DNA of 51,350 nt from a virus (Duplodnaviria; Heunggongvirae; Uroviricota; Caudoviricetes): IMG/VR virus record IMGVR_UViG_2690315831_000003; one strand, given 5' to 3'. Within the stretch, counting starts at the first letter, position 1; each line of letters opens with the position of its first letter. The translations under genes and the position numbers were made by a program. Below the pieces are notes generated by a model. That model had not been told where the DNA came from, searched no databases, and saw nothing but the letters and a program-made list of their open reading frames with translations. Below are positions 1 to 22,742 of the stretch, in pieces.

Positions 1-1131
1 TCAAATGACCAGTTTTTTCCACTCTTTACCGCGTACATCGTTGTAAATATCGGTCATTTTTTGATTCGAATGACCCAGCAAAATTTGGGTATCAATTCCC
101 TGCTCCCTGAACAATCGCTCTGATAAAGATCTCTGCTCATGGAAAGAGGGTGGAGTGCCATTAGCGCGCCAGTTGTAATCCACAGAATCCCGGGCTTTTT
201 TAAATGCAACTGTCAACGTTGCTGGCTTAACCATCCCGCCGCGCTTAGCTGTCCCTTTAGCATGATGGTGGTGCAATAACCACGGACTAAGAACGCAATC
301 GCGACAGGATGACACTACATCATCCAGGGTGAGATTTAATTTATCGCAACGCAGAGCCAGAGGGATGGCAATCCGGGTTCCTGTTTTTTGCTGTTCGACA
401 TGAAGATAACCATCCCTGATATCCGAAAATTTCATTTTGCAAATATCTGAAAGGCGCTGGCCTGTCATCAGCGCCAGCAGCATACCACGTTGTAAAAAGT
501 AACCATCCTTTTCCGCTGCATTATAAATCATCATCCACTCATCAAAGGTCAGTCGTTGCCGTGATATCCGTACCTGTGGTTTTTTTGCCGATTCTGCAGG
601 GTTAAAGCCTGGCGAGACATCGCCCGTTTGCTGGGCCTCCCGGAAAACATCAATCAGTACTTTCCTGAAAATTTGTCCCATTCTGTTATGTCCTTTTGCC
701 TTGTAATCTTCCAGCACCGATACCACATCTTTTACGGTTATGGCATCTAATGGTCTGGTACCAAAACGTTCATCAAATACCCTGAGAGGGGATGCTTTCT
801 GTTTCAGTGTGTTGAGTTTGATCTCTCCGTTTTCATATCTTTCCTGTTGAATTTTTCGGTAACTATTCAGAAAAACAGAAACGGTTGATGAACCACCGGT
901 ATCACGAATAATTTTCTCCTGCAGAGTGAGCATTTGTTCCATTTGTTGCCTGGCAAGACGGCTGTTCGCTTCTGCTGCAATAGCTTCTGCCTGTTTCTGG
1001 TCAATACTGCCGAGCCCGTGATTTTTTCCTGTTATGGGATGCCTGTAACGCCAGTAAACTTTGTTATTTCTTTTGTCAAAATACGGAGATAATCCCGGAA
1101 CTTCAGTTTTATATTTTCGTGGGCGCGCCAT
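1..1131 (-). CDS. int: Tyrosine-type site-specific integrase
   Basis: 376-aa ORF ending exactly at window start; position next to an excisionase-like gene; typical phage integrase length and basic N-terminal arm. Confidence 0.85.
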   Translation of the reverse strand: MARPRKYKTEVPGLSPYFDKRNNKVYWRYRHPITGKNHGLGSIDQKQAEAIAAEANSRLARQQMEQMLTLQEKIIRDTGGSSTVSVFLNSYRKIQQERYENGEIKLNTLKQKASPLRVFDERFGTRPLDAITVKDVVSVLEDYKAKGHNRMGQIFRKVLIDVFREAQQTGDVSPGFNPAESAKKPQVRISRQRLTFDEWMMIYNAAEKDGYFLQRGMLLALMTGQRLSDICKMKFSDIRDGYLHVEQQKTGTRIAIPLALRCDKLNLTLDDVVSSCRDCVLSPWLLHHHHAKGTAKRGGMVKPATLTVAFKKARDSVDYNWRANGTPPSFHEQRSLSERLFREQGIDTQILLGHSNQKMTDIYNDVRGKEWKKLVI

Positions 1132-1357
1132 CTTCCAGTATCCTCTTCAAAGCAGGGTGATCTGTGGCGATCACTTCCGGCTTGTTTACCATTCCGACAA
1201 AGCGAGCTCGAGGATCCACTCGCCAGTGTCTTCCAACTTTTTTGGGGAGAGGAAATATCATTCCGGCTTTAGCGTATTTACTTAACGTGCCCGGAGTCGG
1301 GACCGGTTCACTGAATTCCTCTTTTGCCCACTCAGTGAGCAGAATAAGTCTTGCCAT
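1109..1357 (-). CDS. xis: Excisionase-like small DNA-binding protein
   Basis: 82-aa basic ORF overlapping the int start by 23 bp, as in lambda xis/int. Confidence 0.6.
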   Translation of the reverse strand: MARLILLTEWAKEEFSEPVPTPGTLSKYAKAGMIFPLPKKVGRHWRVDPRARFVGMVNKPEVIATDHPALKRILEDGAPTKI

Positions 1358-1421
1358 GAGCGTTGTTCGCTAATCATGGCCGCCGCCACTATAGCTTGCG
1401 GACGACGACCGGGGTTGAACA

Positions 1422-3893
1422 TTAAAAATCAGCCTGACTCGGGATCAGTTTTTGCCAGATGGCTGAAACGTATTTTGCCTGGTAACGCGCATCGTGCAGC
1501 GCGTTATGGCGTTCACCTTCGAATGGAATAGTCGTTCTTGCGTCGAAATCCATCACCAGTCCCAGAGCAACCATCGTTCTTACATCGCGATCATTGGTGT
1601 AACGCCACGGGCAGGGGATCCCCTGCCGTTCATATGAACGGCGTAAAATCACGTTGTCGAAAGTTGCACCGTTACCCCAGACCTGAACAAAAAATTCACC
1701 GGAGTTTTCGTCGATAAATTCCCGGAATTGCAGCAGTGCATCATCCAACGGGATTTCATCGGTCAGAATGGCGGATTGTGCTTCGCGTGACTGTTTCAGC
1801 CACCACTTAATGGTGTCCCGATCGATGACCCCGCCTGCGGTTTCCAGATCGATAGTTTTGCTGAATTCTGGCCCCATCTCTCCGGTTGCCGGATCAAAAA
1901 ACTTACCGGCTATAGCGTTTATTGGCGCATCAGGATTTTTTCCCATTGTTTCAAGGTCAATCATCAGATGGTGCCACAACCTGCTGGTGGATGTGATTTC
2001 ATGATGACCGTTCACTTTAATTAAGGGATTTGCTGTTTCGCCAGTTTTATTATCGCTGGCGTGATACCGATCGCTGACAGTGTTCTCCTTGTGCAGATGT
2101 TCAGTGCCTTCCATTTCCTCCGGATCATTTTCCTGAGCTTCAGCCTGATTCTCTTCATCGAATGTTTCCTGGTAGGTTGCGTTCCCCATCACCGCACCAC
2201 AGTCAGGACAGTTGCCGCCACCGGTCTGACCGCATGCGGTGCAAACTTTTTCCGGTTCTTGTTGCACTTCTGGTTCAGGCAGTTTCGTTTCTGGCTCGTT
2301 TTGTAACGCATTTGGGCTGTTTTGTTCCGCTTTCTGGTCGTTTTGTTCCGATTCGGGCTGGTTCTGGTTCACAGAATCGCGGGTTTCAATCCCCTTAACC
2401 CATTTCGGATCATTCGGGTCGCTAATCCCTTCAACAAACTCACCACGTGATGCACCAAGCAATTTATCGGCGTCAGGCTGGCTGATATTGGCTGCCTGCA
2501 TAATTTTGTTTACTTCGTCAGCGGTAACTTTTACCGGCTCTGGTTGTTCTGAATGTTCAGATATATCTGTATTTTGCGGTAAGCCCATGTATGTGCCGTT
2601 TTTGCGGGCAAAATATTCTTCTTTCGTGATTTCAGTAGCCCCGGCAGCCAGCGCCTTGTCCAGACCAGAAAGTTTGTTTGCGCGACCGTATTTTTCCCCG
2701 TCCTTATCGGTAAAGACGAAATAAAAAGGCCCTTCACGCTCTACAGATGGTTCAGCTTCCACCAGGATTTCATTTTTTTGAGAATTGGATTCCGCCGTCT
2801 CCACTGGATCAGTTTGTTCTGCTGACAGGAGGAGAGCATCAGCAGGGCTCTGGTCTGTTTCTTCATGTTCAAATACGCCCTTTGTAGTCAGGTATTCAGT
2901 GATGTATTTGTTCAGCGCCACGGGATCTTTATGAATGTCGATCGGACGTTCACGAACAAGGCCGAAAATAGTCTGACGGCTGTATAGAAGTGCATCAGGT
3001 TGTTTGCGCATTGATGCAGAGATACGCTTCCAGTCTTCGCGATCCTTGTCGATAACTTCATTTTTTGCCCAGCGATGGATGCTGCCGTCAATGTTTCCGG
3101 CATCAATATCACCAGGCCAGAGAGCGTAAGCCAGCTCTTCATCCAGTGTTTTCCATGTCTGCCTGTATTCGCGACGAATGGCTGTAGTGACAGGGTTGAT
3201 TTTTGCTGCTGAGTTTTCGGTGAGGTGCTGGTTAACTCTGGTGCGTGCGAGATCAACAACAGACGTATATTTTCCGGTTTCCTTGCGTTTACCTTCGCGA
3301 CGTTTTTTCCAGATGCGCATCTCTGCCTGAATTTCTGGCCATTTGGCACCAGGCTTACATTTATGCTTAACCCACCCGATGGCATGCAGTTTAATCTCCG
3401 GATACATGGCGTTAACTTCTGGCATTTTCATCAACGCTTCAACGATATGTCCGTCGAATGTTGCCATGTCTTCCTGCAACAATTCCTGTGCGCTAATCAC
3501 CATATCAACGGTGATGTTTTCACATGTGTCGAACTTAACCATGACAGCGTTCTGTACTTCAGGGGACAGCTTGTCAAAAGTGACGTTCATCGGATCTGAT
3601 TCAGTCTCAACCGGGACAAAGGAAGCAGACGCCTCATCCCAGCGGTTTTCCAGCATATATTCAGCATCCCAGGAGTCGAGGGCTGGGCGGGGTGTACCGG
3701 GTTTATCCTCACAGACAAGAAATTTATAAGCGCAGTCCTGAGCAGCCGGATAATGTTCAAGGAATTGCCAGTGAAATTTTGCGCGGGCGCGACGTTCATC
3801 ACCGGCTTCAATGGCAGTGGCCACAGCAACAGCGCCCTCGTTTTTTATTGCCTGTTCGTCAGGAATGGCGGCGCAAATAAATATTTTACTCAT
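1422..3893 (-). CDS. Large exonuclease (the type often annotated exodeoxyribonuclease VIII-like) with C-terminal DnaQ/DEDDh 3'-5' exonuclease domain
   Basis: 823 aa; C-terminal motifs IDLETMG and HNALHDARYQAK fit DEDDh Exo I and Exo III; Cys-rich CTACGQTGGGNCPDCGA segment mid-protein; RBS GAGG before ATG at 3893. Confidence 0.7.
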   Translation of the reverse strand: MSKIFICAAIPDEQAIKNEGAVAVATAIEAGDERRARAKFHWQFLEHYPAAQDCAYKFLVCEDKPGTPRPALDSWDAEYMLENRWDEASASFVPVETESDPMNVTFDKLSPEVQNAVMVKFDTCENITVDMVISAQELLQEDMATFDGHIVEALMKMPEVNAMYPEIKLHAIGWVKHKCKPGAKWPEIQAEMRIWKKRREGKRKETGKYTSVVDLARTRVNQHLTENSAAKINPVTTAIRREYRQTWKTLDEELAYALWPGDIDAGNIDGSIHRWAKNEVIDKDREDWKRISASMRKQPDALLYSRQTIFGLVRERPIDIHKDPVALNKYITEYLTTKGVFEHEETDQSPADALLLSAEQTDPVETAESNSQKNEILVEAEPSVEREGPFYFVFTDKDGEKYGRANKLSGLDKALAAGATEITKEEYFARKNGTYMGLPQNTDISEHSEQPEPVKVTADEVNKIMQAANISQPDADKLLGASRGEFVEGISDPNDPKWVKGIETRDSVNQNQPESEQNDQKAEQNSPNALQNEPETKLPEPEVQQEPEKVCTACGQTGGGNCPDCGAVMGNATYQETFDEENQAEAQENDPEEMEGTEHLHKENTVSDRYHASDNKTGETANPLIKVNGHHEITSTSRLWHHLMIDLETMGKNPDAPINAIAGKFFDPATGEMGPEFSKTIDLETAGGVIDRDTIKWWLKQSREAQSAILTDEIPLDDALLQFREFIDENSGEFFVQVWGNGATFDNVILRRSYERQGIPCPWRYTNDRDVRTMVALGLVMDFDARTTIPFEGERHNALHDARYQAKYVSAIWQKLIPSQADF

Positions 3894-11393: not shown

Positions 11394-11603
11394 AAACGGT
11401 TTGCGGGGAAAGAAGAGTTAAGTAGAATTGCTGCGGGTGCTTGAGGCTGTCTGCCTCGGGCATGCCGCCGTAAGGCAGACAGAGAAAAGCCCCAGTTAAC
11501 ATTACGCGTCTTGCAGGACGCTTAACATTAATCTGAGGCCCAATCTATGCTTCACAAACGTAGGTTAGCCTCTTACGTGCCGAAAGGCAAGGAGAAGCAG
11601 GCT

Positions 11604-11759
11604 ATGAAGCAGCAAAAGGCGATGTTAATCGCCCTGATCGTCATCTGTATTACCGTTGTTGTGACGGCACTGGTAACGAGGAAAGACCTCTGCGAGGTAC
11701 GAATCCGAACCGGCCAGACGGAGGTCGCTGTCTTCGTAGACTACGAATCTGAGAAGTAA
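11604..11759 (+). CDS. hokD: Hok/Gef-family type I toxin (HokD/RelF-like)
   Basis: 51-aa MKQQKAMLIALIVICITVVVTALVTRKDLCEVRIRTGQTEVAVFVDYESEK nearly matches recalled HokD/RelF; structured 5' leader with 10-bp hairpin and 3' fold-back hairpin GCGAGGGAgaaaTCCCTCGC. Confidence 0.85.
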   Translation: MKQQKAMLIALIVICITVVVTALVTRKDLCEVRIRTGQTEVAVFVDYESEK

Positions 11760-15772: not shown

Positions 15773-16831
15773 ATGTTTAATACTGTAAAAATATCCAGTT
15801 GTGAGTTAATCAACGCTGACTGCCTGGAATTTATCCGGTCGTTACCCGAAAATTCTGTTGACCTGATAGTCACGGACCCGCCGTACTTTAAAGTGAAGCC
15901 TGAGGGCTGGGATAACCAGTGGAAGGGCGACGATGACTACCTGAAGTGGCTGGACCTGTGTCTGGCGCAGTTCTGGCGGGTGCTGAAACCTGCCGGAAGT
16001 CTTTACCTGTTCTGTGGCCATCGCCTGGCATCTGACATTGAAATCATGATGCGTGAACGCTTCAGTGTGCTGAACCATATTATCTGGGCAAAGCCGTCCG
16101 GACGCTGGAACGGGTGCAACAAGGAAAGCCTGCGGGCGTATTTCCCCGCCACAGAGCGCATTCTGTTCGCGGAACATTATCAGGGGCCGTATCGCCCGAA
16201 AGATGCCGGGTATGAGGCGAAGGGCAGGGCACTGAAACAGCATGTGATGGCCCCGCTGATTTCTTACTTTCGTGATGCGCGTGCTGCCCTGGGGATAACG
16301 GCAAAACAGATAGTGGATGCCACAGGAAAGAAAAACATGGTGTCGCACTGGTTCAGTGCCAGTCAGTGGCAGCTACCGAACGAAAGCGATTATCTGAAAT
16401 TACAGGCGCTGTTTGCCCGGGTGGCAGAAGAGAAGCATCAGCGGGGGGAACTGGAGAAGCCCCACCACCAGCTGCTGGAGACGTATACTTCACTGAACCG
16501 GCAGTATGCGGAACTGCAGAGTGAATATAAGCATCTGCGGCGGTATTTTGGCGTGACGGCGCAGGTGCCGTACACGGATGTGTGGACGCATAAACCGGTG
16601 CAGTACTATCCCGGGAAACATCCGTGCGAAAAACCGGCAGAAATGCTGCAGCAGATAATCAGCGCGAGCAGTCGTCCGGGTGACCTGGTTGCAGATTTTT
16701 TCATGGGGTCGGGTTCGACAGTCAAAGCCGCGATGGCGCTGGGGCGGCGTGCTACAGGCGTTGAGCTGGAGACTGAACGTTTTGAGCAGACGGTCAGGGA
16801 AGTTCAGGATTTAGTCAGTCAGAACGGATGA
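15773..16831 (+). CDS. Orphan DNA methyltransferase (N6-adenine or N4-cytosine, beta-class)
   Basis: DPPY motif near N-terminus (VTDPPYF) and FxGxG motif near C-terminus (FFMGSGST); no adjacent restriction endonuclease gene. Confidence 0.85.
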   Translation: MFNTVKISSCELINADCLEFIRSLPENSVDLIVTDPPYFKVKPEGWDNQWKGDDDYLKWLDLCLAQFWRVLKPAGSLYLFCGHRLASDIEIMMRERFSVLNHIIWAKPSGRWNGCNKESLRAYFPATERILFAEHYQGPYRPKDAGYEAKGRALKQHVMAPLISYFRDARAALGITAKQIVDATGKKNMVSHWFSASQWQLPNESDYLKLQALFARVAEEKHQRGELEKPHHQLLETYTSLNRQYAELQSEYKHLRRYFGVTAQVPYTDVWTHKPVQYYPGKHPCEKPAEMLQQIISASSRPGDLVADFFMGSGSTVKAAMALGRRATGVELETERFEQTVREVQDLVSQNG

Positions 16832-16871: not shown

Positions 16872-16947
16872 GGCCCTTTAGCTCAGTGGTGAGAGCGAGC
16901 GACTCATAATCGCCAGGTCGCTGGTTCAAATCCAGCAAGGGCCACCA
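16872..16947 (+). tRNA. tRNA with CAU anticodon (Ile2/ileX-like or Met)
   Basis: Cloverleaf folded by hand: acceptor GGCCCTT/AAGGGCC, D-arm GCTC-AGTGGTGA-GAGC, anticodon loop CTCATAA, T-loop TTCAAAT, 3' CCA. Confidence 0.85.
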
Positions 16948-16956
16948 TATCACATA

Positions 16957-17033
16957 CCGCCATTAGCTCATCGGGATAGAGCGCCAGCCTTCGAAGCTGG
17001 CTGCGCGGGGTTCGAGTCCTCGATGGCGGTCCA
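16957..17033 (+). tRNA. tRNA-Arg (UCG anticodon)
   Basis: Acceptor CCGCCAT/ATGGCGG, anticodon stem CCAGC/GCTGG with loop CTTCGAA, T-loop TTCGAGT, 3' CCA; unusual C1-G72. Confidence 0.75.
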
Positions 17034-17311
17034 TTATCTGCATTATGCGTTGTTGGTTCTGATGAGTGAATCATTGTCTTTTGAGCAACAGGCTATCATA
17101 TAAGATAGCCTCAGACTTCCTTGTTTATTCTCGCCGGATGCTTCGTAGATATTTGCAGGCATCTGTATGCAGGGGTATTATTGCGGCATATATCATCCGG
17201 AAAAATAAAAACTACATGCTGATCCGGAGATGATAGTTACAAGTCCTCCCGGATCCCGCATATTTACTATATTTTATAGATAATTGTTCTTGTTAATATG
17301 GAGATGGATAA

Positions 17312-17740
17312 ATGTATTGCCGTGCTGTACCGGTTCTTGTTTTGATATTAGCCAGTCTGACAACTGGCTGCACAAAAGATGTATCGACAAATAATTATGA
17401 TGCTTCTCTGTATCACTCAGATAAATTAATAAAGTCGCAAAATTTGAGCTCATCGGAACGTACCCCTGATGCCAGTGAAGAAATCCGGCAGTATGCCATT
17501 CAGGTCAGGAAAGCCATAGAAGAACAGTTAAAGGATGCGAGTAAGTATTCAGGAAAAGAGTGTTCACTGAGAATGTATATGGCCCCGAATGGTCTTCTGC
17601 TACAGGTTAAAAGAGAAAGCGGTGATCCCGATTTATGTCGTGAAGCGATGAATGCAGTAAAGAATGCTGATATACCATCACCACCGTCTTCAGGAGTATA
17701 TAAAGCATTTAGAAATGGCGTGCTGGATTTTAAACTCTGA
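17312..17740 (+). CDS. Lipoprotein with TolA C-terminal (domain III)-like domain
   Basis: Signal peptide plus lipobox LTTGC; C-terminal SKYSGKECSLRMYMAPNGLLLQVKRESGDPDLCREAMNAVKNADIPSPPSSGVYKAFRNGVLDFKL parallels recalled E. coli TolA III; AT-rich context. Confidence 0.7.
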   Translation: MYCRAVPVLVLILASLTTGCTKDVSTNNYDASLYHSDKLIKSQNLSSSERTPDASEEIRQYAIQVRKAIEEQLKDASKYSGKECSLRMYMAPNGLLLQVKRESGDPDLCREAMNAVKNADIPSPPSSGVYKAFRNGVLDFKL

Positions 17741-17877
17741 CAGGGGGAGAAGATTTTCTCCTGTCCTGATGATTTTGGGGCGCTGGAAAGATATTGTGCT
17801 GTGAAGTGTTAAATCCCTCACAATTCAGTAAGTTGACAGTTGCCTGTCAGACTGAGCATTTGTTAAAAAAATTTCGC

Positions 17878-18053
17878 ATGGTGAATCCCCCTGTGCGGAG
17901 GGGCGACTGGTGAACGGTATGATCTCTTTGATGATCGTAAGCGAGAATACGCGGGTTTGGTGTCACCGGGCTGAACTCACCGGGAGGCACCCGGCACCAT
18001 GCTCATGGTGATACAGAAATGCGGCTTCAGCCCCTCTCCGGAGGGGCTTTCTT
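17878..18053 (+). ncRNA. Putative sRNA, repeat unit A
   Basis: Promoter TTGCCT (17840-17845) / TAAAAA (17864-17869); terminator GCCCCTCTCCGGAGGGGC + T-run at 18030-18052; ORFs across the unit not conserved. Confidence 0.4.
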
Positions 18054-18060
18054 ATGGACA

Positions 18061-18128
18061 AAAAAAGCCCGCGCTGGGAGACGCGGGCGGCAAGGAATAA
18101 ACAATAAAACGTGAAGTAATACTTCAAC
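18061..18128 (-). ncRNA. Putative minus-strand sRNA, copy 1
   Basis: Minus strand: -35 TTGCGC, 17 nt, -10 TATTAT, then a ~70-nt transcript with hairpin GAAGTAtTACTTC and terminator GCCCGCG...CGCGGGC + T7. Confidence 0.4.
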
Positions 18129-18210
18129 TGGCGAATAATACCCTACAGTAATCACTCTGCGCAATAGCGTGGCCTTTTTCGAATTGCGGGCTGTAGTCTC
18201 CCTTCTGCCG

Positions 18211-18372
18211 GGTGTCCTGGTTGCAGATTTCTTCATGTGGTAGGGTTCGGCAGTTAAAGCAGCGATGGCGCTGGGGCGTCGTGCAACTGGCGTTGAGCTG
18301 GATACCGGGCGTTTTGAACAGACTGCGCAGGAAATCAGGGATGTATTTAGCGGGAGCGGTTTGCAGAAGTAA
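18211..18372 (+). pseudogene. Duplicated 3' fragment of the methyltransferase gene
   Basis: About 160 bp homologous to 16679-16831 (MTase C-terminus), with an in-frame stop and no start. Confidence 0.6.
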
Positions 18373-18435
18373 TCTCCCAAAATGCCATTTTTGGAATATA
18401 CTGGTATTAAGTCTTTTTGCTAAGGTTAATTCAAA

Positions 18436-19161
18436 ATGGATGTTGCCTGCTCTGTGGTCCTGATTCGCTATCCGATAGATATTTTTCTTGAAAAAGAAAA
18501 AGTTTCACTCGATGCCGGAAGTGTTATGCTTGTTGCCAGAAATATAAGAGGGCTTTTCTGTGCTTATGCCGACAGAGTGAAAATGGCAGATATAAGTAAC
18601 AGCGTCGTCAATCAGTATCTGGAAAGGGAGTGTGAACTGACGGAGTATACACCGACAAAAATGCCTCTTTATTTGATGTCTGATATTTACAATACGGAAC
18701 TGGCGGAGGCTTTAATAACCCGGCATAGTGAATCCAGTGATACTTTGAAGGATTTCTCTGTTATAACCGCATTTTCATGTATCTCCTTATTTGCAACAGA
18801 CAGACGTCTGCCATTATTTTTGTCCGGTGCTGTAAATAATATCAGCTGTAAAGTAAGGGCTATAATTCAGACCGACATATCGGCAGGCTGGATGCTTGGT
18901 GTGATTGCATTACAATTGCATATGAGCGAAAGCTTGTTGAAGCGAAAACTTAAGGATGAAGGTTATAGCTTTAGTCGGTTGTTGCTGGAGGAGCGAATGC
19001 GTGTTGCTGTTAATCTTGTATGTTTCCAGCGAGAGTGTGGACAAGCGATAGCGGAAAAATGTGGTTACTCAAGTAAGTCCTACTTCATTTCTGTATTTCA
19101 CCAGTATTATGGTGCACCACCTGAGAGCTATGCATATTTGCAGAAAGCAGACGTTATCTGA
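18436..19161 (+). CDS. AraC/XylS-family transcriptional regulator (cargo)
   Basis: 241 aa; C-terminal dual-HTH AraC signature region; AT-rich locus. Confidence 0.7.
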   Translation: MDVACSVVLIRYPIDIFLEKEKVSLDAGSVMLVARNIRGLFCAYADRVKMADISNSVVNQYLERECELTEYTPTKMPLYLMSDIYNTELAEALITRHSESSDTLKDFSVITAFSCISLFATDRRLPLFLSGAVNNISCKVRAIIQTDISAGWMLGVIALQLHMSESLLKRKLKDEGYSFSRLLLEERMRVAVNLVCFQRECGQAIAEKCGYSSKSYFISVFHQYYGAPPESYAYLQKADVI

Positions 19162-19250
19162 TGTTTTTTCATCAGGCATATATTGATTGACTGTATTAGA
19201 TATAGTCTGAATGTGTTCAGCATAAAAAGTTATAATCATTTGGTGTTTGC

Positions 19251-19529
19251 GTGAATATTGATGAGAAAATCAGATGTAGCCAACTGTTACAGCGTATTGA
19301 AGCCGTCAATGTGGAACGAACAAAGGTCTTCAGTCGTCTGACAGTTTTATTTTGTACCCCTGATCGACGTTCAGGTCAGGAGATGGTTCTTCTGGATGTA
19401 GATGCACTTCGGAACGTCTGTGAGGAGTTCACCGCGGCTAATTCGGAGTTACTGAGTCTTGTTCAGGAGTACAACAGAATTGCAGGTAGTAACGGTTTTG
19501 ATGAAATCAAAATTATATCCCGTGGATAA
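19251..19529 (+). CDS. Hypothetical protein downstream of the AraC-like regulator
   Basis: 92-aa ORF with GTG start and weak RBS. Confidence 0.35.
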   Translation: MNIDEKIRCSQLLQRIEAVNVERTKVFSRLTVLFCTPDRRSGQEMVLLDVDALRNVCEEFTAANSELLSLVQEYNRIAGSNGFDEIKIISRG

Positions 19530-19852
19530 AACATATCCTGTATATTTATGTTGTTACATACAGGCGCTTTTAGTATCTGCCGCACGGCAGTTGTACTTCA
19601 GAATAAGATGCTTTTGTGACTGGTGGTGTTGTATCTGGGGTTAGCCAGTAGGCAGGTTCAGAGAGTCCGGTGGTAATTATGTGTATGCAGTGGTTGTTGC
19701 TGTACCGTGGGCAAGTTCTGGAACTGGCTTCGTCCATTGTAGATGATTGTTAGCTGGATATCAGTTACCTCATGGAAATGTTAAATGACTCACAATTCGG
19801 TTGATGGGCTATTGTCTGATCGATGGAAGTCTTGTAAAAACGAGCCAGCATA

Positions 19853-20012
19853 GTGAATCCCCCTGTGCGGAGGGGCGTCTGACATGGTCTCCATAGCGAT
19901 GGTCACAATACGCAGATTCAGTAGTCAGGCTGAATCTACCGGGAGGCACCCGGCACTATGCTGCTTATGGTGTATACATAGCGATCGGCCCCTCTCCGGA
20001 GGGGCTTTTTTT
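19853..20012 (+). ncRNA. Putative sRNA, repeat unit B
   Basis: Same conserved 5' and 3' blocks, divergent middle; terminator 19988-20012. Confidence 0.4.
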
Positions 20013-20111
20013 GTGCGGGAAAAGGCTGTGTTGTTAAGTGTTAAATTCCTCACAGTTCAGATGGTTGATGCTTGCCTGTCTGAGGGGGAGTTGTTAAAAA
20101 AGTTCTGCATG

Positions 20112-20282
20112 GTGAATCCCCCTGTGCGGAGGGGCGACTGGTGTGATTTGCATCTTTTCTGTTGTAGGCAATGCAAACGCGGGTTCAGGGACACCAGACT
20201 GGACTCACCGGGAGGCACCCGGCACCATGTTCATGATGATACAGATACGCAGTGTCAGCCCCTCTCCTGAGGGGCTTTTTTA
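20112..20282 (+). ncRNA. Putative sRNA, repeat unit C
   Basis: Near-identical to unit A over the first ~35 nt and the 3' hairpins; terminator 20258-20282. Confidence 0.4.
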
Positions 20283-20381
20283 TGCAGGAAAAACGCTGTG
20301 TTGTGAAATGTTAAATTCCTCACAGTTCAGATGGTTGATGCTTGCCTGTCTTACGGGGAGTTGTTAAAAAAGTTCTGCATG

Positions 20382-20544
20382 GTGAATCCCCCTGAGCGGA
20401 GGGGCATATCAGCGCAGGTGTTTCTACTCTATCCTTTCTGTGCGGGTTCAGGTGCTGATACTGAACTCACCGGGAGGCACCCGGCACCATGCAGTATACA
20501 GAGATTAGGCATACATCCAGGCTCCTCATCGCAGGAGCCTTTTT
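20382..20544 (+). ncRNA. Putative sRNA, repeat unit D
   Basis: Conserved 5' box and internal hairpin; different terminator GGCTCCTcatcgcAGGAGCC + T5. Confidence 0.35.
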
Positions 20545-20550
20545 ACATGT

Positions 20551-20628
20551 AAAAAAAAACCGCTCCTGGGAAGAGCGGTTGGCAAGGAAGCAAGGAATAA
20601 ATAACAAAACGTGAAGTAATTTATTCAG
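20551..20628 (-). ncRNA. Putative minus-strand sRNA, copy 2
   Basis: Same promoter TTGCGC-17-TATTAT and conserved body UUACUUCACGUUUU..UUAUUCCUUGC; terminator AACCGCTC...GAGCGGTT + T9. Confidence 0.4.
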
Positions 20629-20777
20629 CACCCTAATAATACCTTAGAGTAATCACCTTGCGCAACTGTAAGGGCGTATTTCTTTTTTGCGGGCTGTTTT
20701 TCTGTGTGACTTTTGTGTTTCCGGAGGTCAGCCCGTGCCTTCTCTGACTCAGAACATTATCCCGGCCGGGAGGATTC

Positions 20778-22742
20778 ATGGCATTTAAACACTACGATGT
20801 GGTCAGGGCGGCATCGCCGTCAGACCTTGCTGAACGACTGACACAAAAACTGAAGGAGGGCTGGCAGCCATTTGGCAGTCCGGTGGCCATCACGCCTTAT
20901 ACCCTGATGCAGGCCATTGCGGCGGAAGGTGATGTCACCACACCAGTGGCGGTGACCGGTAATGAGGGTAAGGCGGTGGCTGTCAGTGCCACCAGCGACC
21001 CGGAGTATTACTTTGTTGTGGTTCTGGCAGGGCAGTCAAATGGCATGTCGTATGGTGAAGGTCTTCCGCTGCCGGAGACATATGACCGTCCGGACCCGCG
21101 CATTAAGCAGCTGGCGCGCCGCAGTACGGTGACACCGGGCGGTGCAGCATGCAAATATAACGACATCATTCCGGCGGACCATTGTCTGCATGATGTGCAG
21201 GACATGAGCCGCCTTAACCATCCGAAAGCGGACCTGTCAAAGGGGCAGTACGGTACCGTGGGGCAGGGGCTGCATATCGCCAAAAAACTGCTGCCGTTTA
21301 TACCGGCGAATGCGGGTATTCTGCTGGTTCCGTGCTGTCGTGGTGGTTCAGCGTTCACCACCGGAGCTGATGGCACATACAGTGACGCTGGCGGTGCCTC
21401 GGAGAATTCAGCGCGCTGGGGTGTGGACAAGCCGCTGTATAAGGACCTTATCGGTCGAACAAAAGCAGCACTGAAGAAGAACCCGAAAAATGTGCTGTTT
21501 ACCGTGGTGTGGATGCAGGGGGAATTTGATTTTGACGGCACGCCCGGAAATCACGCAGCACAGTTTGGTGCGCTGGTTGATAAATTCCGTGCAGACCTGA
21601 CGGATATGGCAGGTCAGTGCGTTGGTGGCTCTGCTGGCGGTGTTCCCTGGATATGCGGGGACACGACGTATTTCTGGAAGCAGAAGAACGAATCCACGTA
21701 CCAGACGGTGTACGGCAGCTATAAAAACAAAACGGAAAAGAATATCCATTTCGTACCGTTCATGACGGATGAGAACGGGGTGAATGTGCCGACGAACAAA
21801 CCGGAAGAAGACCCGGACATTCCGGGTATCGGGTATTACGGTTCGAAATGGCGTGACAGCTCAGCCACCTGGACGTCACAGGACAGGGCGAGCCATTTCA
21901 GCACCTGGGCACGCCGGGGGATTATTTCCGACCGTCTGGCAACGGCGATTCTGGTGCACGCCGGGAGAACCGCTGAATTCATTACCGGAAAACAGCCTGA
22001 TATGGTGAAGCCCACCGTACCTTCCGGTGAAGGTCCGGAGAGAGAGGCGGAAGCCCCGGTCAGTAACCGAACCCTGATGAGTCTGCTGGCATCCGGCGAA
22101 GACCTGGCATCACAGGGCTGGCGCTATTATCACAAACCGGCGGGCGGAGACAGTGTTAACAAAAACATTGCTGAAGCGGTGGTCAGTGATGCGGGGGCTA
22201 CGGGAGGTAAGGCCCTGCAACTGAACAAACCGGAAAACCACATCTGGTTTCTGGAGCATGATGCAGCCGGACAGGGGGCGGAGTTACTGAAGAAGGGCGG
22301 ACGTGTGAGCGTACGGTTTAAGTTGCCGGGTTCACTGGTGCCGAATCAGTTTGCCCTGGGCATTTACTGGCAGTTGTCGTCCCTGCCGGAGGGGGTGACG
22401 CTGTCAGGAGAAGGTAACGATATGCTGATGTCTTTCTTCCTGCAGACGGATACGACGAACCTGAACGCGATGCATCACAGGAAGCCGAATGCGAAGCTGG
22501 ATACATTCGGGGTCTTTGATAACGGATGGCACACGCTGGCTTTTGAGTTTGCCGGAAACAACAGCATTCAGGTGACACCAGTACTGGATGAGAAACGGGG
22601 AGCGGCGTTCACACTGGTGAAGTCACCGGCATCGGGGGCGGCGGACAAACTGCAACTGACCGATATATCAAAATCGGCGACGTATACGCTGCTGATTGAC
22701 AGCATTGCGGTGGAAGTGAACAGCACAGACACTGCGGCATGA
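20778..22742 (+). CDS. nanS: Prophage 9-O-acetyl-sialate esterase NanS-p-like (SGNH hydrolase)
   Basis: 654 aa; GQSN motif in VVLAGQSNGMSYGEG; same location relative to the stx site as the NanS-p gene of Stx phages. Confidence 0.7.
   Translation: MAFKHYDVVRAASPSDLAERLTQKLKEGWQPFGSPVAITPYTLMQAIAAEGDVTTPVAVTGNEGKAVAVSATSDPEYYFVVVLAGQSNGMSYGEGLPLPETYDRPDPRIKQLARRSTVTPGGAACKYNDIIPADHCLHDVQDMSRLNHPKADLSKGQYGTVGQGLHIAKKLLPFIPANAGILLVPCCRGGSAFTTGADGTYSDAGGASENSARWGVDKPLYKDLIGRTKAALKKNPKNVLFTVVWMQGEFDFDGTPGNHAAQFGALVDKFRADLTDMAGQCVGGSAGGVPWICGDTTYFWKQKNESTYQTVYGSYKNKTEKNIHFVPFMTDENGVNVPTNKPEEDPDIPGIGYYGSKWRDSSATWTSQDRASHFSTWARRGIISDRLATAILVHAGRTAEFITGKQPDMVKPTVPSGEGPEREAEAPVSNRTLMSLLASGEDLASQGWRYYHKPAGGDSVNKNIAEAVVSDAGATGGKALQLNKPENHIWFLEHDAAGQGAELLKKGGRVSVRFKLPGSLVPNQFALGIYWQLSSLPEGVTLSGEGNDMLMSFFLQTDTTNLNAMHHRKPNAKLDTFGVFDNGWHTLAFEFAGNNSIQVTPVLDEKRGAAFTLVKSPASGAADKLQLTDISKSATYTLLIDSIAVEVNSTDTAA

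Follow-up and report, generated by a model that had tools for sequence, protein, structure and literature searches.

Two diverged copies of a putative EcOnc08-type Hfq-binding small RNA gene in the late regulatory region of a Stx-phage-like prophage

The DNA analyzed here is a 51,350-nucleotide (nt) viral stretch (Caudoviricetes; IMG/VR record IMGVR_UViG_2690315831_000003), referred to in its full length as the window. It is the late regulatory region of a lambdoid prophage that resembles Shiga toxin (Stx) phages and has no stx genes. Two diverged copies of a short transcription unit lie on its minus strand, at 18060-18164 (copy 1) and 20551-20665 (copy 2). As judged from homology, both are copies of a prophage small RNA (sRNA) gene that has been catalogued as EcOnc08/EcOnc21/EcOnc42 in enterohemorrhagic Escherichia coli (EHEC) and as E2348C_1409.E2348C_1408.IGR in enteropathogenic E. 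coli (EPEC). Our preferred reading, to which we assign a probability of roughly 0.7, is that the two units are paralogous prophage-borne copies of a gene for an Hfq-binding sRNA, each most likely an autonomous sigma-70 transcription unit whose RNA most likely acts in trans.

Both units follow the same plan: a TTGCGC hexamer, an 18-nt spacer, a TATTAT hexamer, a body of 70 to 80 nt, a strong hairpin, and a run of seven to nine U residues. A preliminary description of the window, made from the letters alone, had proposed these two hexamers as a promoter with a 17-nt spacer. The hexamers were borne out but the spacing was not: the pattern with N18 matched exactly the two unit sites in the window (0.28 matches expected at up to one mismatch), while the pattern with N17 had no match. 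In copy 1, the −35 hexamer is at 18159..18164 and the −10 hexamer at 18135..18140. The predicted RNA of ~70 nt (18060..18129) would start at the sixth nucleotide after the −10 hexamer, a position chosen by analogy with the phage sRNAs AgvB and AsxR, and would consist of a 5′ hairpin (UGAAGU/ACUUCA), a U-rich linker, a proposed seed, UUCCUUGCC (18089..18097), and an intrinsic terminator (18060..18088) whose stem begins immediately 3′ of the seed. The terminator, GCCCGCGT/CTCCCA/GCGCGGGC, has eight pairs, seven of them G-C, in a stem-loop at 18088-18067 followed by U7 at 18066-18060 (−16.9 kcal/mol), which confirms the strong GC-rich stem and U7 described for this site (18088-18060).

The second unit, originally placed near 20551-20670, was confirmed on the minus strand at 20551-20665. 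Its promoter (20636..20665) consists of TTGCGC (20665-20660), 18 nt, and TATTAT (20641-20636), and its predicted RNA, with the start assigned in the same way, would be ~80 nt long (20551..20630). The seed of copy 2 is doubled: UUCCUUGC is followed by UUCCUUGCC at 20581..20597, a 9-nt insertion relative to copy 1, so that one of the two alleles in this prophage carries the CCUUGC seed twice. The doubling is a 9-nt tandem duplication; strain STEC434 has the same type of terminator without it. The intrinsic terminator of copy 2 (20551..20580; −13.6 kcal/mol) has, as had been suggested, a different but equivalent structure, with a differing stem (AACCGCUCUU/AGGAGCGGUU) and a U run; its stem-loop, AACCGCTCTT/CCC/AGGAGCGGTT, occupies 20580-20558 and has 10 pairs. 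Aligned over 174 columns, copies 1 and 2 show 81% identity. The body that they were said to share, CTTCACGT..TTCCTTGCC, is present at only these two places in the window (0.00 expected); CACGUUUUGUUGUUUAUUCCUUGCC is a stretch of it. Terminator-like sites are frequent in this part of the window (14 in 17000-21500 compared to 4.0 ± 1.9 expected), and the hairpins of the two units are followed by a U run on the minus strand only. The predicted RNAs folded more stably than shuffled sequences, at −20.9 kcal/mol for copy 1 (z = −3.85) and −22.4 kcal/mol for copy 2 (z = −4.75), with the seed unpaired in the former and the second seed repeat unpaired in the latter.

The proposal that the units encode a functional sRNA is supported by their homologues, which are Hfq-bound RNAs of the same strand. 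Homologous loci in EHEC Sakai and EPEC E2348/69 are 93 to 94% identical to the units, and copy 1 is 94.2% identical to the O157:H7 loci over 121 nt. They share the promoter motif, body, seed, and terminator, as well as the position upstream of the sialate O-acetylesterase gene nanS-p and convergent with an STnc100-type RNA (EcOnc05). In Sakai, Hfq-bound RNAs were mapped by cross-linking and analysis of cDNAs (CRAC), and “convergent sRNA pairs” were described between the “moron” and a conserved open reading frame (ORF) downstream of the late promoter PR′ (Tree 2014, PMC4104026). The Hfq-CRAC peaks EcOnc08 and EcOnc21 (prophage Sp4) and EcOnc42 (Sp15, 3′ of stx1B) were listed there as homologues; EcOnc42 was later said to “bookend” stx1AB (Sy et al. 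2020). In that study, the three peaks are homologues of one ~271-nt RNA, and a short RNA, its promoter, and its function are left undefined. The window differs in having two copies in one prophage, the second with another terminator and the doubled seed.

The EcOnc08 peak (NC_002695.2, 1179938-1180010, minus strand, five of five datasets) begins in the Sp4 homologue at the base that follows TATTAT and reaches into the U tail, coinciding with the predicted short RNA, and EcOnc21 and EcOnc42 cover the segment just upstream of the EcOnc08-type body. The EcOnc21 and EcOnc08 peaks part exactly at the −10 hexamer. After correction of its coordinates, EcOnc42, like EcOnc21, comprises the −35 hexamer and spacer and the sequence just upstream of them. 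We rejected an assignment of EcOnc42 as an antisense of the nanS-p start, since the published Sakai coordinates are offset by +136 at this locus. The published numbering (Tree 2014, Waters 2017) is 136 nt lower than that of NC_002695.2 at 1.268 Mb and 2.92 Mb; we infer from the sequences of reads obtained by cross-linking, ligation, and sequencing of hybrids (CLASH) and from the position of AsxR that the offset applies beyond ~1.27 Mb and is 0 to 1 at Sp4 (1.18 Mb). The mapping of EcOnc08 therefore stands. Such a shift can misplace sRNA peaks when older tables are combined with the current RefSeq record.

The EPEC candidate E2348C_1409.E2348C_1408.IGR, detected by RNA interaction by ligation and sequencing (RIL-seq), maps to the minus strand of prophage PP6 at 1444797-1444978 (Table S6 of Pearl Mizrahi 2021, PMC8550237), and its table entry cites EcOnc08/21/42 as homologues. 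The locus is homologous, with its 3′ end on the final U of the corresponding terminator, and the binding site marked in it, CUUGC(C)G, corresponds to the seed in the window. It differs in its length estimate (182 nt), was not validated by Northern blotting, and is unnamed, and the EPEC target list may not transfer to the host of the prophage analyzed here. A literature search with the sequence of the element itself found nothing.

Each unit directly follows an STnc100 gene (RF02076), tail to tail, with the 3′ ends of the two RNAs a few nucleotides apart. The partner of copy 1 is at 17847-18059 (plus strand, 172.4 bits) and that of copy 2 at 20349-20550 (plus strand, 165.6 bits); the plus-strand repeats with which the units had been described as convergent are thus STnc100 genes. 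The location of the units is the moron slot 3′ of PR′, where they converge on an STnc100-type RNA upstream of nanS-p or lysis genes, and the arrangement around nanS-p in Sakai and E2348/69 matches that in the window. The preliminary description had considered that the element might be the leader or terminator of a known gene. No minus-strand gene that could own either unit in this way was found upstream of it.

Conservation of the putative promoter, hereafter P1, was measured as pairwise identity across 17 distinct alleles. Identity reached 0.93 in the −35 hexamer and 0.98 in the −10 hexamer, whereas the spacer (0.68), the upstream 40 nt (0.54), and the 7 nt downstream (0.63) scored lower. TTGC of the −35 hexamer was invariant, and the spacing was constant, with indels in none of the 17 spacers. 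Within the spacer, a single T and one AC dinucleotide, three positions in all, were invariant as well. In the allele of strain RM13745, the 18-nt spacer holds a perfect inverted repeat, CCTGAT-AAC-ATCAGG; this repeat or the invariant positions could be a protein-binding site or part of the structure of a longer RNA. Copies adjacent to holin genes (94EC, RM13745, and PhiR49_2) have unrelated sequence upstream of the −35 hexamer and keep both hexamers. Copy 1 in the window likewise loses upstream homology beyond the −35 hexamer and retains the hexamers. In E. coli SMN152SH1 (NZ_CP024618.1, locus ~340-480), a copy located beside an annotated IS2-family transposase gene has an intact body and terminator, while all that precedes its −10 hexamer, including the −35 hexamer, is replaced by unrelated sequence; by its sequence, it is a natural promoter-truncation variant.

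The same −35 hexamer is found at the loci of three other phage sRNAs, AsxR (Sp5), EcOnc03 (Sp9), and AgvB (Sp10), which have TTGCGC, 18 nt, and TAAAAT. Upstream, these loci and the EcOnc08-type gene have homologous flanks, and the homology breaks directly after the −35 hexamer. The 5′ ends of AsxR, AgvB, and EcOnc03 were mapped as primary by RNA ligase–mediated rapid amplification of cDNA ends with tobacco acid pyrophosphatase (PMC4104026). Because the P1 hexamers are conserved while spacer and flanks drift, because alleles with unrelated upstream sequence keep them, and because AsxR and AgvB share the −35 hexamer, we consider P1 to be probably functional.

The alleles were aligned in an 18-sequence set, and 12 distinct RNA variants were folded singly. 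RNAalifold applied to the MAFFT alignment mis-registered the terminator, since stems differ between alleles, and was replaced by per-sequence folds. The seed UUCCUUGCC directly abuts the terminator stem in 15 of the 17 variants, and CUUCUUGCC does so in the remaining 2. The most conserved segment of the RNA is this short seed beside the terminator and not the whole antisense stretch. Comparison of the hairpin across related loci, which had been proposed as a check, showed that it is kept in all 12 folded variants (−10.4 to −19.1 kcal/mol) together with six to nine U residues, despite the presence of several different stems. The units thus combine a Rho-independent terminator having a U tail of at least six residues with a conserved, accessible seed, and their anatomy is that of an Hfq-dependent trans-acting sRNA.

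Candidate targets come from the EPEC RIL-seq data, in which 767 chimeras with the cfa 5′ untranslated region (5′UTR) and 197 with the dppA 5′UTR were found, as well as chimeras with emrA, tir, espC, pcm, and a gene from the enterocyte effacement locus (PMC8550237). The targets share the motif GGCAAGG/GGCAGGG (MEME E = 0.0096 for GGCAAGG), and the CUUGC(C)G site marked in the sRNA is complementary to it (PMC8550237). In the window, CCUUGCC within UUCCUUGCC, just 5′ of the terminator, is complementary to GGCAAGG, and this seed-complement motif was not enriched elsewhere in the window. Target prediction, which had also been proposed as a check, placed CCUUGCCG on CGGCAAGG in cfa and, with the EPEC allele, the G/U-rich linker on the CA-rich leader of dppA; its outcome was mixed, the seed falling on the cfa site but the energies equaling those of shuffled controls.

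Together, these data suggest the following scheme. P1 (TTGCGC, 18 nt, TATTAT) would be used by sigma-70 RNA polymerase, with transcription starting about 6 nt after the −10 hexamer. The product, 70 to 80 nt long, would contain a small 5′ hairpin, a G/U-rich single-stranded linker, UUCCUUGCC, and the intrinsic terminator with U7-9, and would be made from a gene that occupies the moron slot, on the downstream side of PR′, with its 3′ end facing that of an STnc100 gene. With Hfq, its CCUUGCC seed would pair with GGCAAGG-type sites in host and virulence mRNAs; the targets seen in EPEC that may be contacted in this way, with a presumed regulatory outcome, are the cfa and dppA 5′UTRs, tir, and espC. 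Beside nanS-p, i.e., at copy 2, a longer isoform from an upstream start would probably share the same terminator.

Several observations weigh against this reading. All of the experimental evidence, including that on Hfq binding, the target set, and long isoforms, comes from the literature on homologues. In a 2021 review, the function of the EcOnc08-type RNA is given as unknown, and no regulatory effect on its targets has been reported in the literature. The predicted duplexes with cfa and dppA were no more stable than those formed by shuffled sRNA (z = +0.5 to −0.6) and therefore provide no independent support. As a sigma-70 promoter, P1 has both hexamers but combines a weak −35 hexamer with an 18-nt spacer. 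A generic promoter scan listed neither P1 site, because TTGCGC matches TTGACA at only three of six positions; the case for P1 therefore rests on comparative evidence and not on consensus strength. The lengths reported for the RNA are also greater than predicted. In the only published Northern blot, the probe was complementary to “−35 to −10” sequence and revealed an RNA of ~271 nt, the EPEC RNA sequencing estimate is 182 nt (PMC8550237), and a CLASH read, ATATTATTCGCCAGCTGAAA, spans the −10 hexamer. An RNA containing the putative promoter therefore exists, and a short form could be its processing product. Longer isoforms thus exist beside, or instead of, the ~70-nt RNA.

The alternative that follows from these lengths is that only a long RNA of ~180 to 270 nt is made, from a promoter located within the 5′ end of nanS-p or close to it, that the Hfq-bound 3′ part of ~70 nt is released from it by processing, as with StxS or PasA, and that copy 1, cut off by a methylase gene fragment, is a silent relic. 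A candidate for such a promoter, P2 (ATGCCA, 17 nt, GATAAT; minus strand, 20756..20784), was detected by the promoter scan at copy 2, where it overlaps the start codon of nanS-p, and has no counterpart at copy 1. P2 would yield a copy 2 isoform of ~195 nt, a size that fits both the EPEC estimate and a CLASH fragment mapped to start at GTAAAATGAGG, and processing of precursors is documented for neighboring phage sRNAs. However, an RNA body would not be expected to keep two hexamers conserved above the level of spacer and flanks at a fixed spacing of 18 nt, nor to keep both under the unrelated upstream sequence of the holin-adjacent copies. In addition, the same −35 hexamer drives AsxR, AgvB, and EcOnc03, whose 5′ ends are primary, and the EcOnc21 and EcOnc08 peaks split at the −10 hexamer itself. 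We regard exclusive production of a long RNA as unlikely, though likelier than the two other alternatives. The long-RNA and P1 models are not mutually exclusive: if P1 is functional, the long isoforms are probably an additional product at loci where nanS-p adjoins.

Could the RNA act mainly in cis? It would be a perfect complement of the Q-antiterminated late transcripts that read through STnc100 into nanS-p, and it could act by transcriptional interference, by forming an RNase III–sensitive duplex, or as a barrier to antisense transcription, with its trans contacts being incidental. In favor of such a role are a fixed position, with the moron on one side and the first conserved late ORF on the other, in which the unit always opposes an RNA of the PR′ direction; the closeness of the convergent 3′ ends; and a long isoform that would come near or run over the site where nanS-p translation starts. 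Yet the downstream gene varies (nanS-p, holin, or methylase fragment), an unrelated sRNA body of the AsxR/AgvB type works in trans from the same slot, conservation peaks in the short seed by the terminator and not over the full antisense stretch, and the RIL-seq chimeras with core-genome mRNAs are abundant and specific. A predominantly cis-acting role thus appears improbable. That the hexamers arose by chance beside a terminator insulating the STnc100 genes, with no distinct RNA being made, would accord with the weak −35 hexamer and with a promoter-scan yield no higher than in shuffled sequence, but is contradicted by Hfq-CRAC, CLASH, and RIL-seq, each of which sees RNA of the matching strand in homologues, and fits neither the recurrence of the whole unit, in several alleles, in ~1,100 genomes and 58 phage records nor the minus-strand bias of the U runs, and we consider it extremely improbable.

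The identity of the element with other known RNAs was also considered. AsxR, AgvB, and EcOnc03 (RF02703, RF02702) resemble it in slot, orientation, upstream flank, and the −35 hexamer with its 18-nt spacer, and they, too, are short Hfq-binding RNAs with intrinsic terminators. In contrast to it, they have the −10 hexamer TAAAAT, are 51 to 60 nt long, act as sponges of FnrS or GcvB, and are unrelated in sequence from the spacer onward; the element lacks the conserved ~42-nt 3′ domain of AsxR and AgvB (GUAUCUCAUGC..GCCCGAACCCAYUCGGGC). Membership in this family was rejected, since cmscan gave no match at E ≤ 10 and similarity ends directly after the −35 hexamer. As far as sequence comparison goes, the relation is one of position and promoter homology only, and we do not file the element as a member.

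STnc100 (RF02076), to which PasD is related, is the adjoining partner in the convergent-pair module; it is ~200 nt long, is encoded on the opposite strand, and has an unrelated sequence. All four covariance-model matches to it fall on the plus strand and stop short of the element, and membership was therefore rejected. Identity with PasA-D, suspected because PasA and PasC adjoin holin genes, was rejected as well: by inspection, the printed PasA and PasD segments (Fig. S5 of PMC8550237) are unrelated to the element, and the same supplementary figure gives the EcOnc08-type RNA as a candidate separate from the Pas sRNAs. The element has several features in common with generic Hfq-dependent trans-acting sRNAs of enterobacteria such as GcvB and OmrA/B: a stem-loop at the 5′ end, a single-stranded stretch rich in U, a seed, a Rho-independent terminator that ends in a long U tail, and dppA as a target. 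It is not homologous to them and differs in that its seed directly abuts the terminator stem; the OmrA-B (21.3 bits), GcvB (15.4 bits), and Spot42 models gave weak, sub-threshold Rfam scores only. The Esr41, AsxR, AgvB, and STnc100 models had no match on the element strand (E ≤ 10), and no family fitted the element in an Rfam scan at either gathering thresholds or E ≤ 10. Protein coding was considered because of a 54–amino acid ORF with a TTG start (17963-18127, minus strand) and older GenBank annotations of the “ORF b70” type, which cover the element; the indels of many lengths among variants exclude a conserved frame.

Among 5,426 complete E. coli genomes searched by BLAST, 988 to 1,110 contained the element, in at most six to seven copies each, and it was also present in 58 phage records, mostly of Stx1- and Stx2-converting phages. 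The copy 2 allele is rarer, being at least 99% identical in 72 genomes. No BLAST row inspected carried an RNA annotation on the element; a few phage records place a “hypothetical protein” ORF there. A scan of genome contigs with the pattern CTTCACGT-N(3-20)-TTCCTTGCC was too loose and gave chance matches in unrelated phyla; the one enterobacterial match inspected (Citrobacter) apparently lies in unrelated sequence. The cargo genes that the unit follows vary: they encode Stx1 in Sakai Sp15, Stx2a in strains 95-3322 and 2014C-3097, and, in RM13745, a subtilase-family AB5 toxin subunit together with an ADP-ribosyltransferase. It therefore travels with several toxin morons.

The surroundings of the two units in the window, all on the plus strand, are as follows. 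A DNA methylase gene (15773-16831), two tRNA genes (16872-17030), and an ORF with a TolA C-terminal domain (17312-17740) precede the STnc100 partner of copy 1. A pseudogene fragment of a methylase C terminus (~18208-18372), annotated as a pseudogene in strains RM14516 and “4,” adjoins copy 1 upstream; the intact methylase gene lies 2.4 kb before the fragment. An AraC-family regulator ORF (HTH_18/HTH_AraC; 18436-19161) and a 92–amino acid ORF with no Pfam match (19251-19529) are located between the two sRNA modules. In Sakai Sp4, an AraC-family gene (ECs1087) is likewise found just upstream of the sRNA module. Together, STnc100, sRNA, methylase fragment, and AraC-like ORF make up a block that resembles a second moron slot acquired by insertion or recombination. 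Three further STnc100 copies (RF02076) follow at 19819-20014, 20078-20287, and 20349-20550, the last being the partner of copy 2. The prophage thus has four STnc100 copies, three of which form a head-to-tail array at intervals of ~60 to 65 nt; each has its own terminator-like hairpin, and only the first and the last have a minus-strand sRNA partner. The slot is bounded by the conserved ORF of nanS-p type (20778-22742; Pfam DUF1737 + SASA + DUF6645). Farther upstream, a sok antitoxin RNA was found at 11435-11609 (RF01794, 117.7 bits), and hokD is annotated at the corresponding place in strain RM14516; the prophage therefore carries a hok/sok-type module.

The RNA is already known, having been catalogued first in 2014 and a second time in 2021. 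Modestly new are the 18-nt spacing, the promoter-type conservation footprint, the −35 hexamer and flank held in common with the anti-sRNA cassette, and the presence of two alleles in one prophage. The comparative analysis also provides the first argument for a short RNA of ~70 nt from a promoter of its own, a product that would have been missed experimentally because the sole Northern probe lay on the promoter.

The −35 hexamer held in common with AsxR and AgvB suggests a way for phages to swap regulatory RNAs at a constant position. Tentatively, the sRNA slot downstream of PR′ might be a swappable cassette in which EcOnc08-type and AsxR/AgvB/EcOnc03 genes are alternative alleles exchanged by recombination, with the breakpoint after the common −35 hexamer; we regard this as possible rather than probable. 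If it is true, unrelated regulators would inherit the same transcriptional input. Since the EcOnc08-type RNA contacts dppA, apparently through its G/U-rich linker and CCUUGCC, and AgvB relieves GcvB repression of dppA, the alleles might have opposing effects on one host pathway.

Rather than introducing a new type of element, the finding clarifies a widespread, neglected one. Roughly one-fifth of the complete E. coli genomes, along with many Stx phages, carry the RNA, yet it has no name, Rfam family, or annotation, and genome scans therefore keep rediscovering it. Its EPEC targets (cfa, dppA, tir, and espC) tie it to membrane stress, peptide uptake, and virulence, and the EcOnc08-type RNA is thus a reasonable candidate for functional study in lysogens of Shiga toxin phages.

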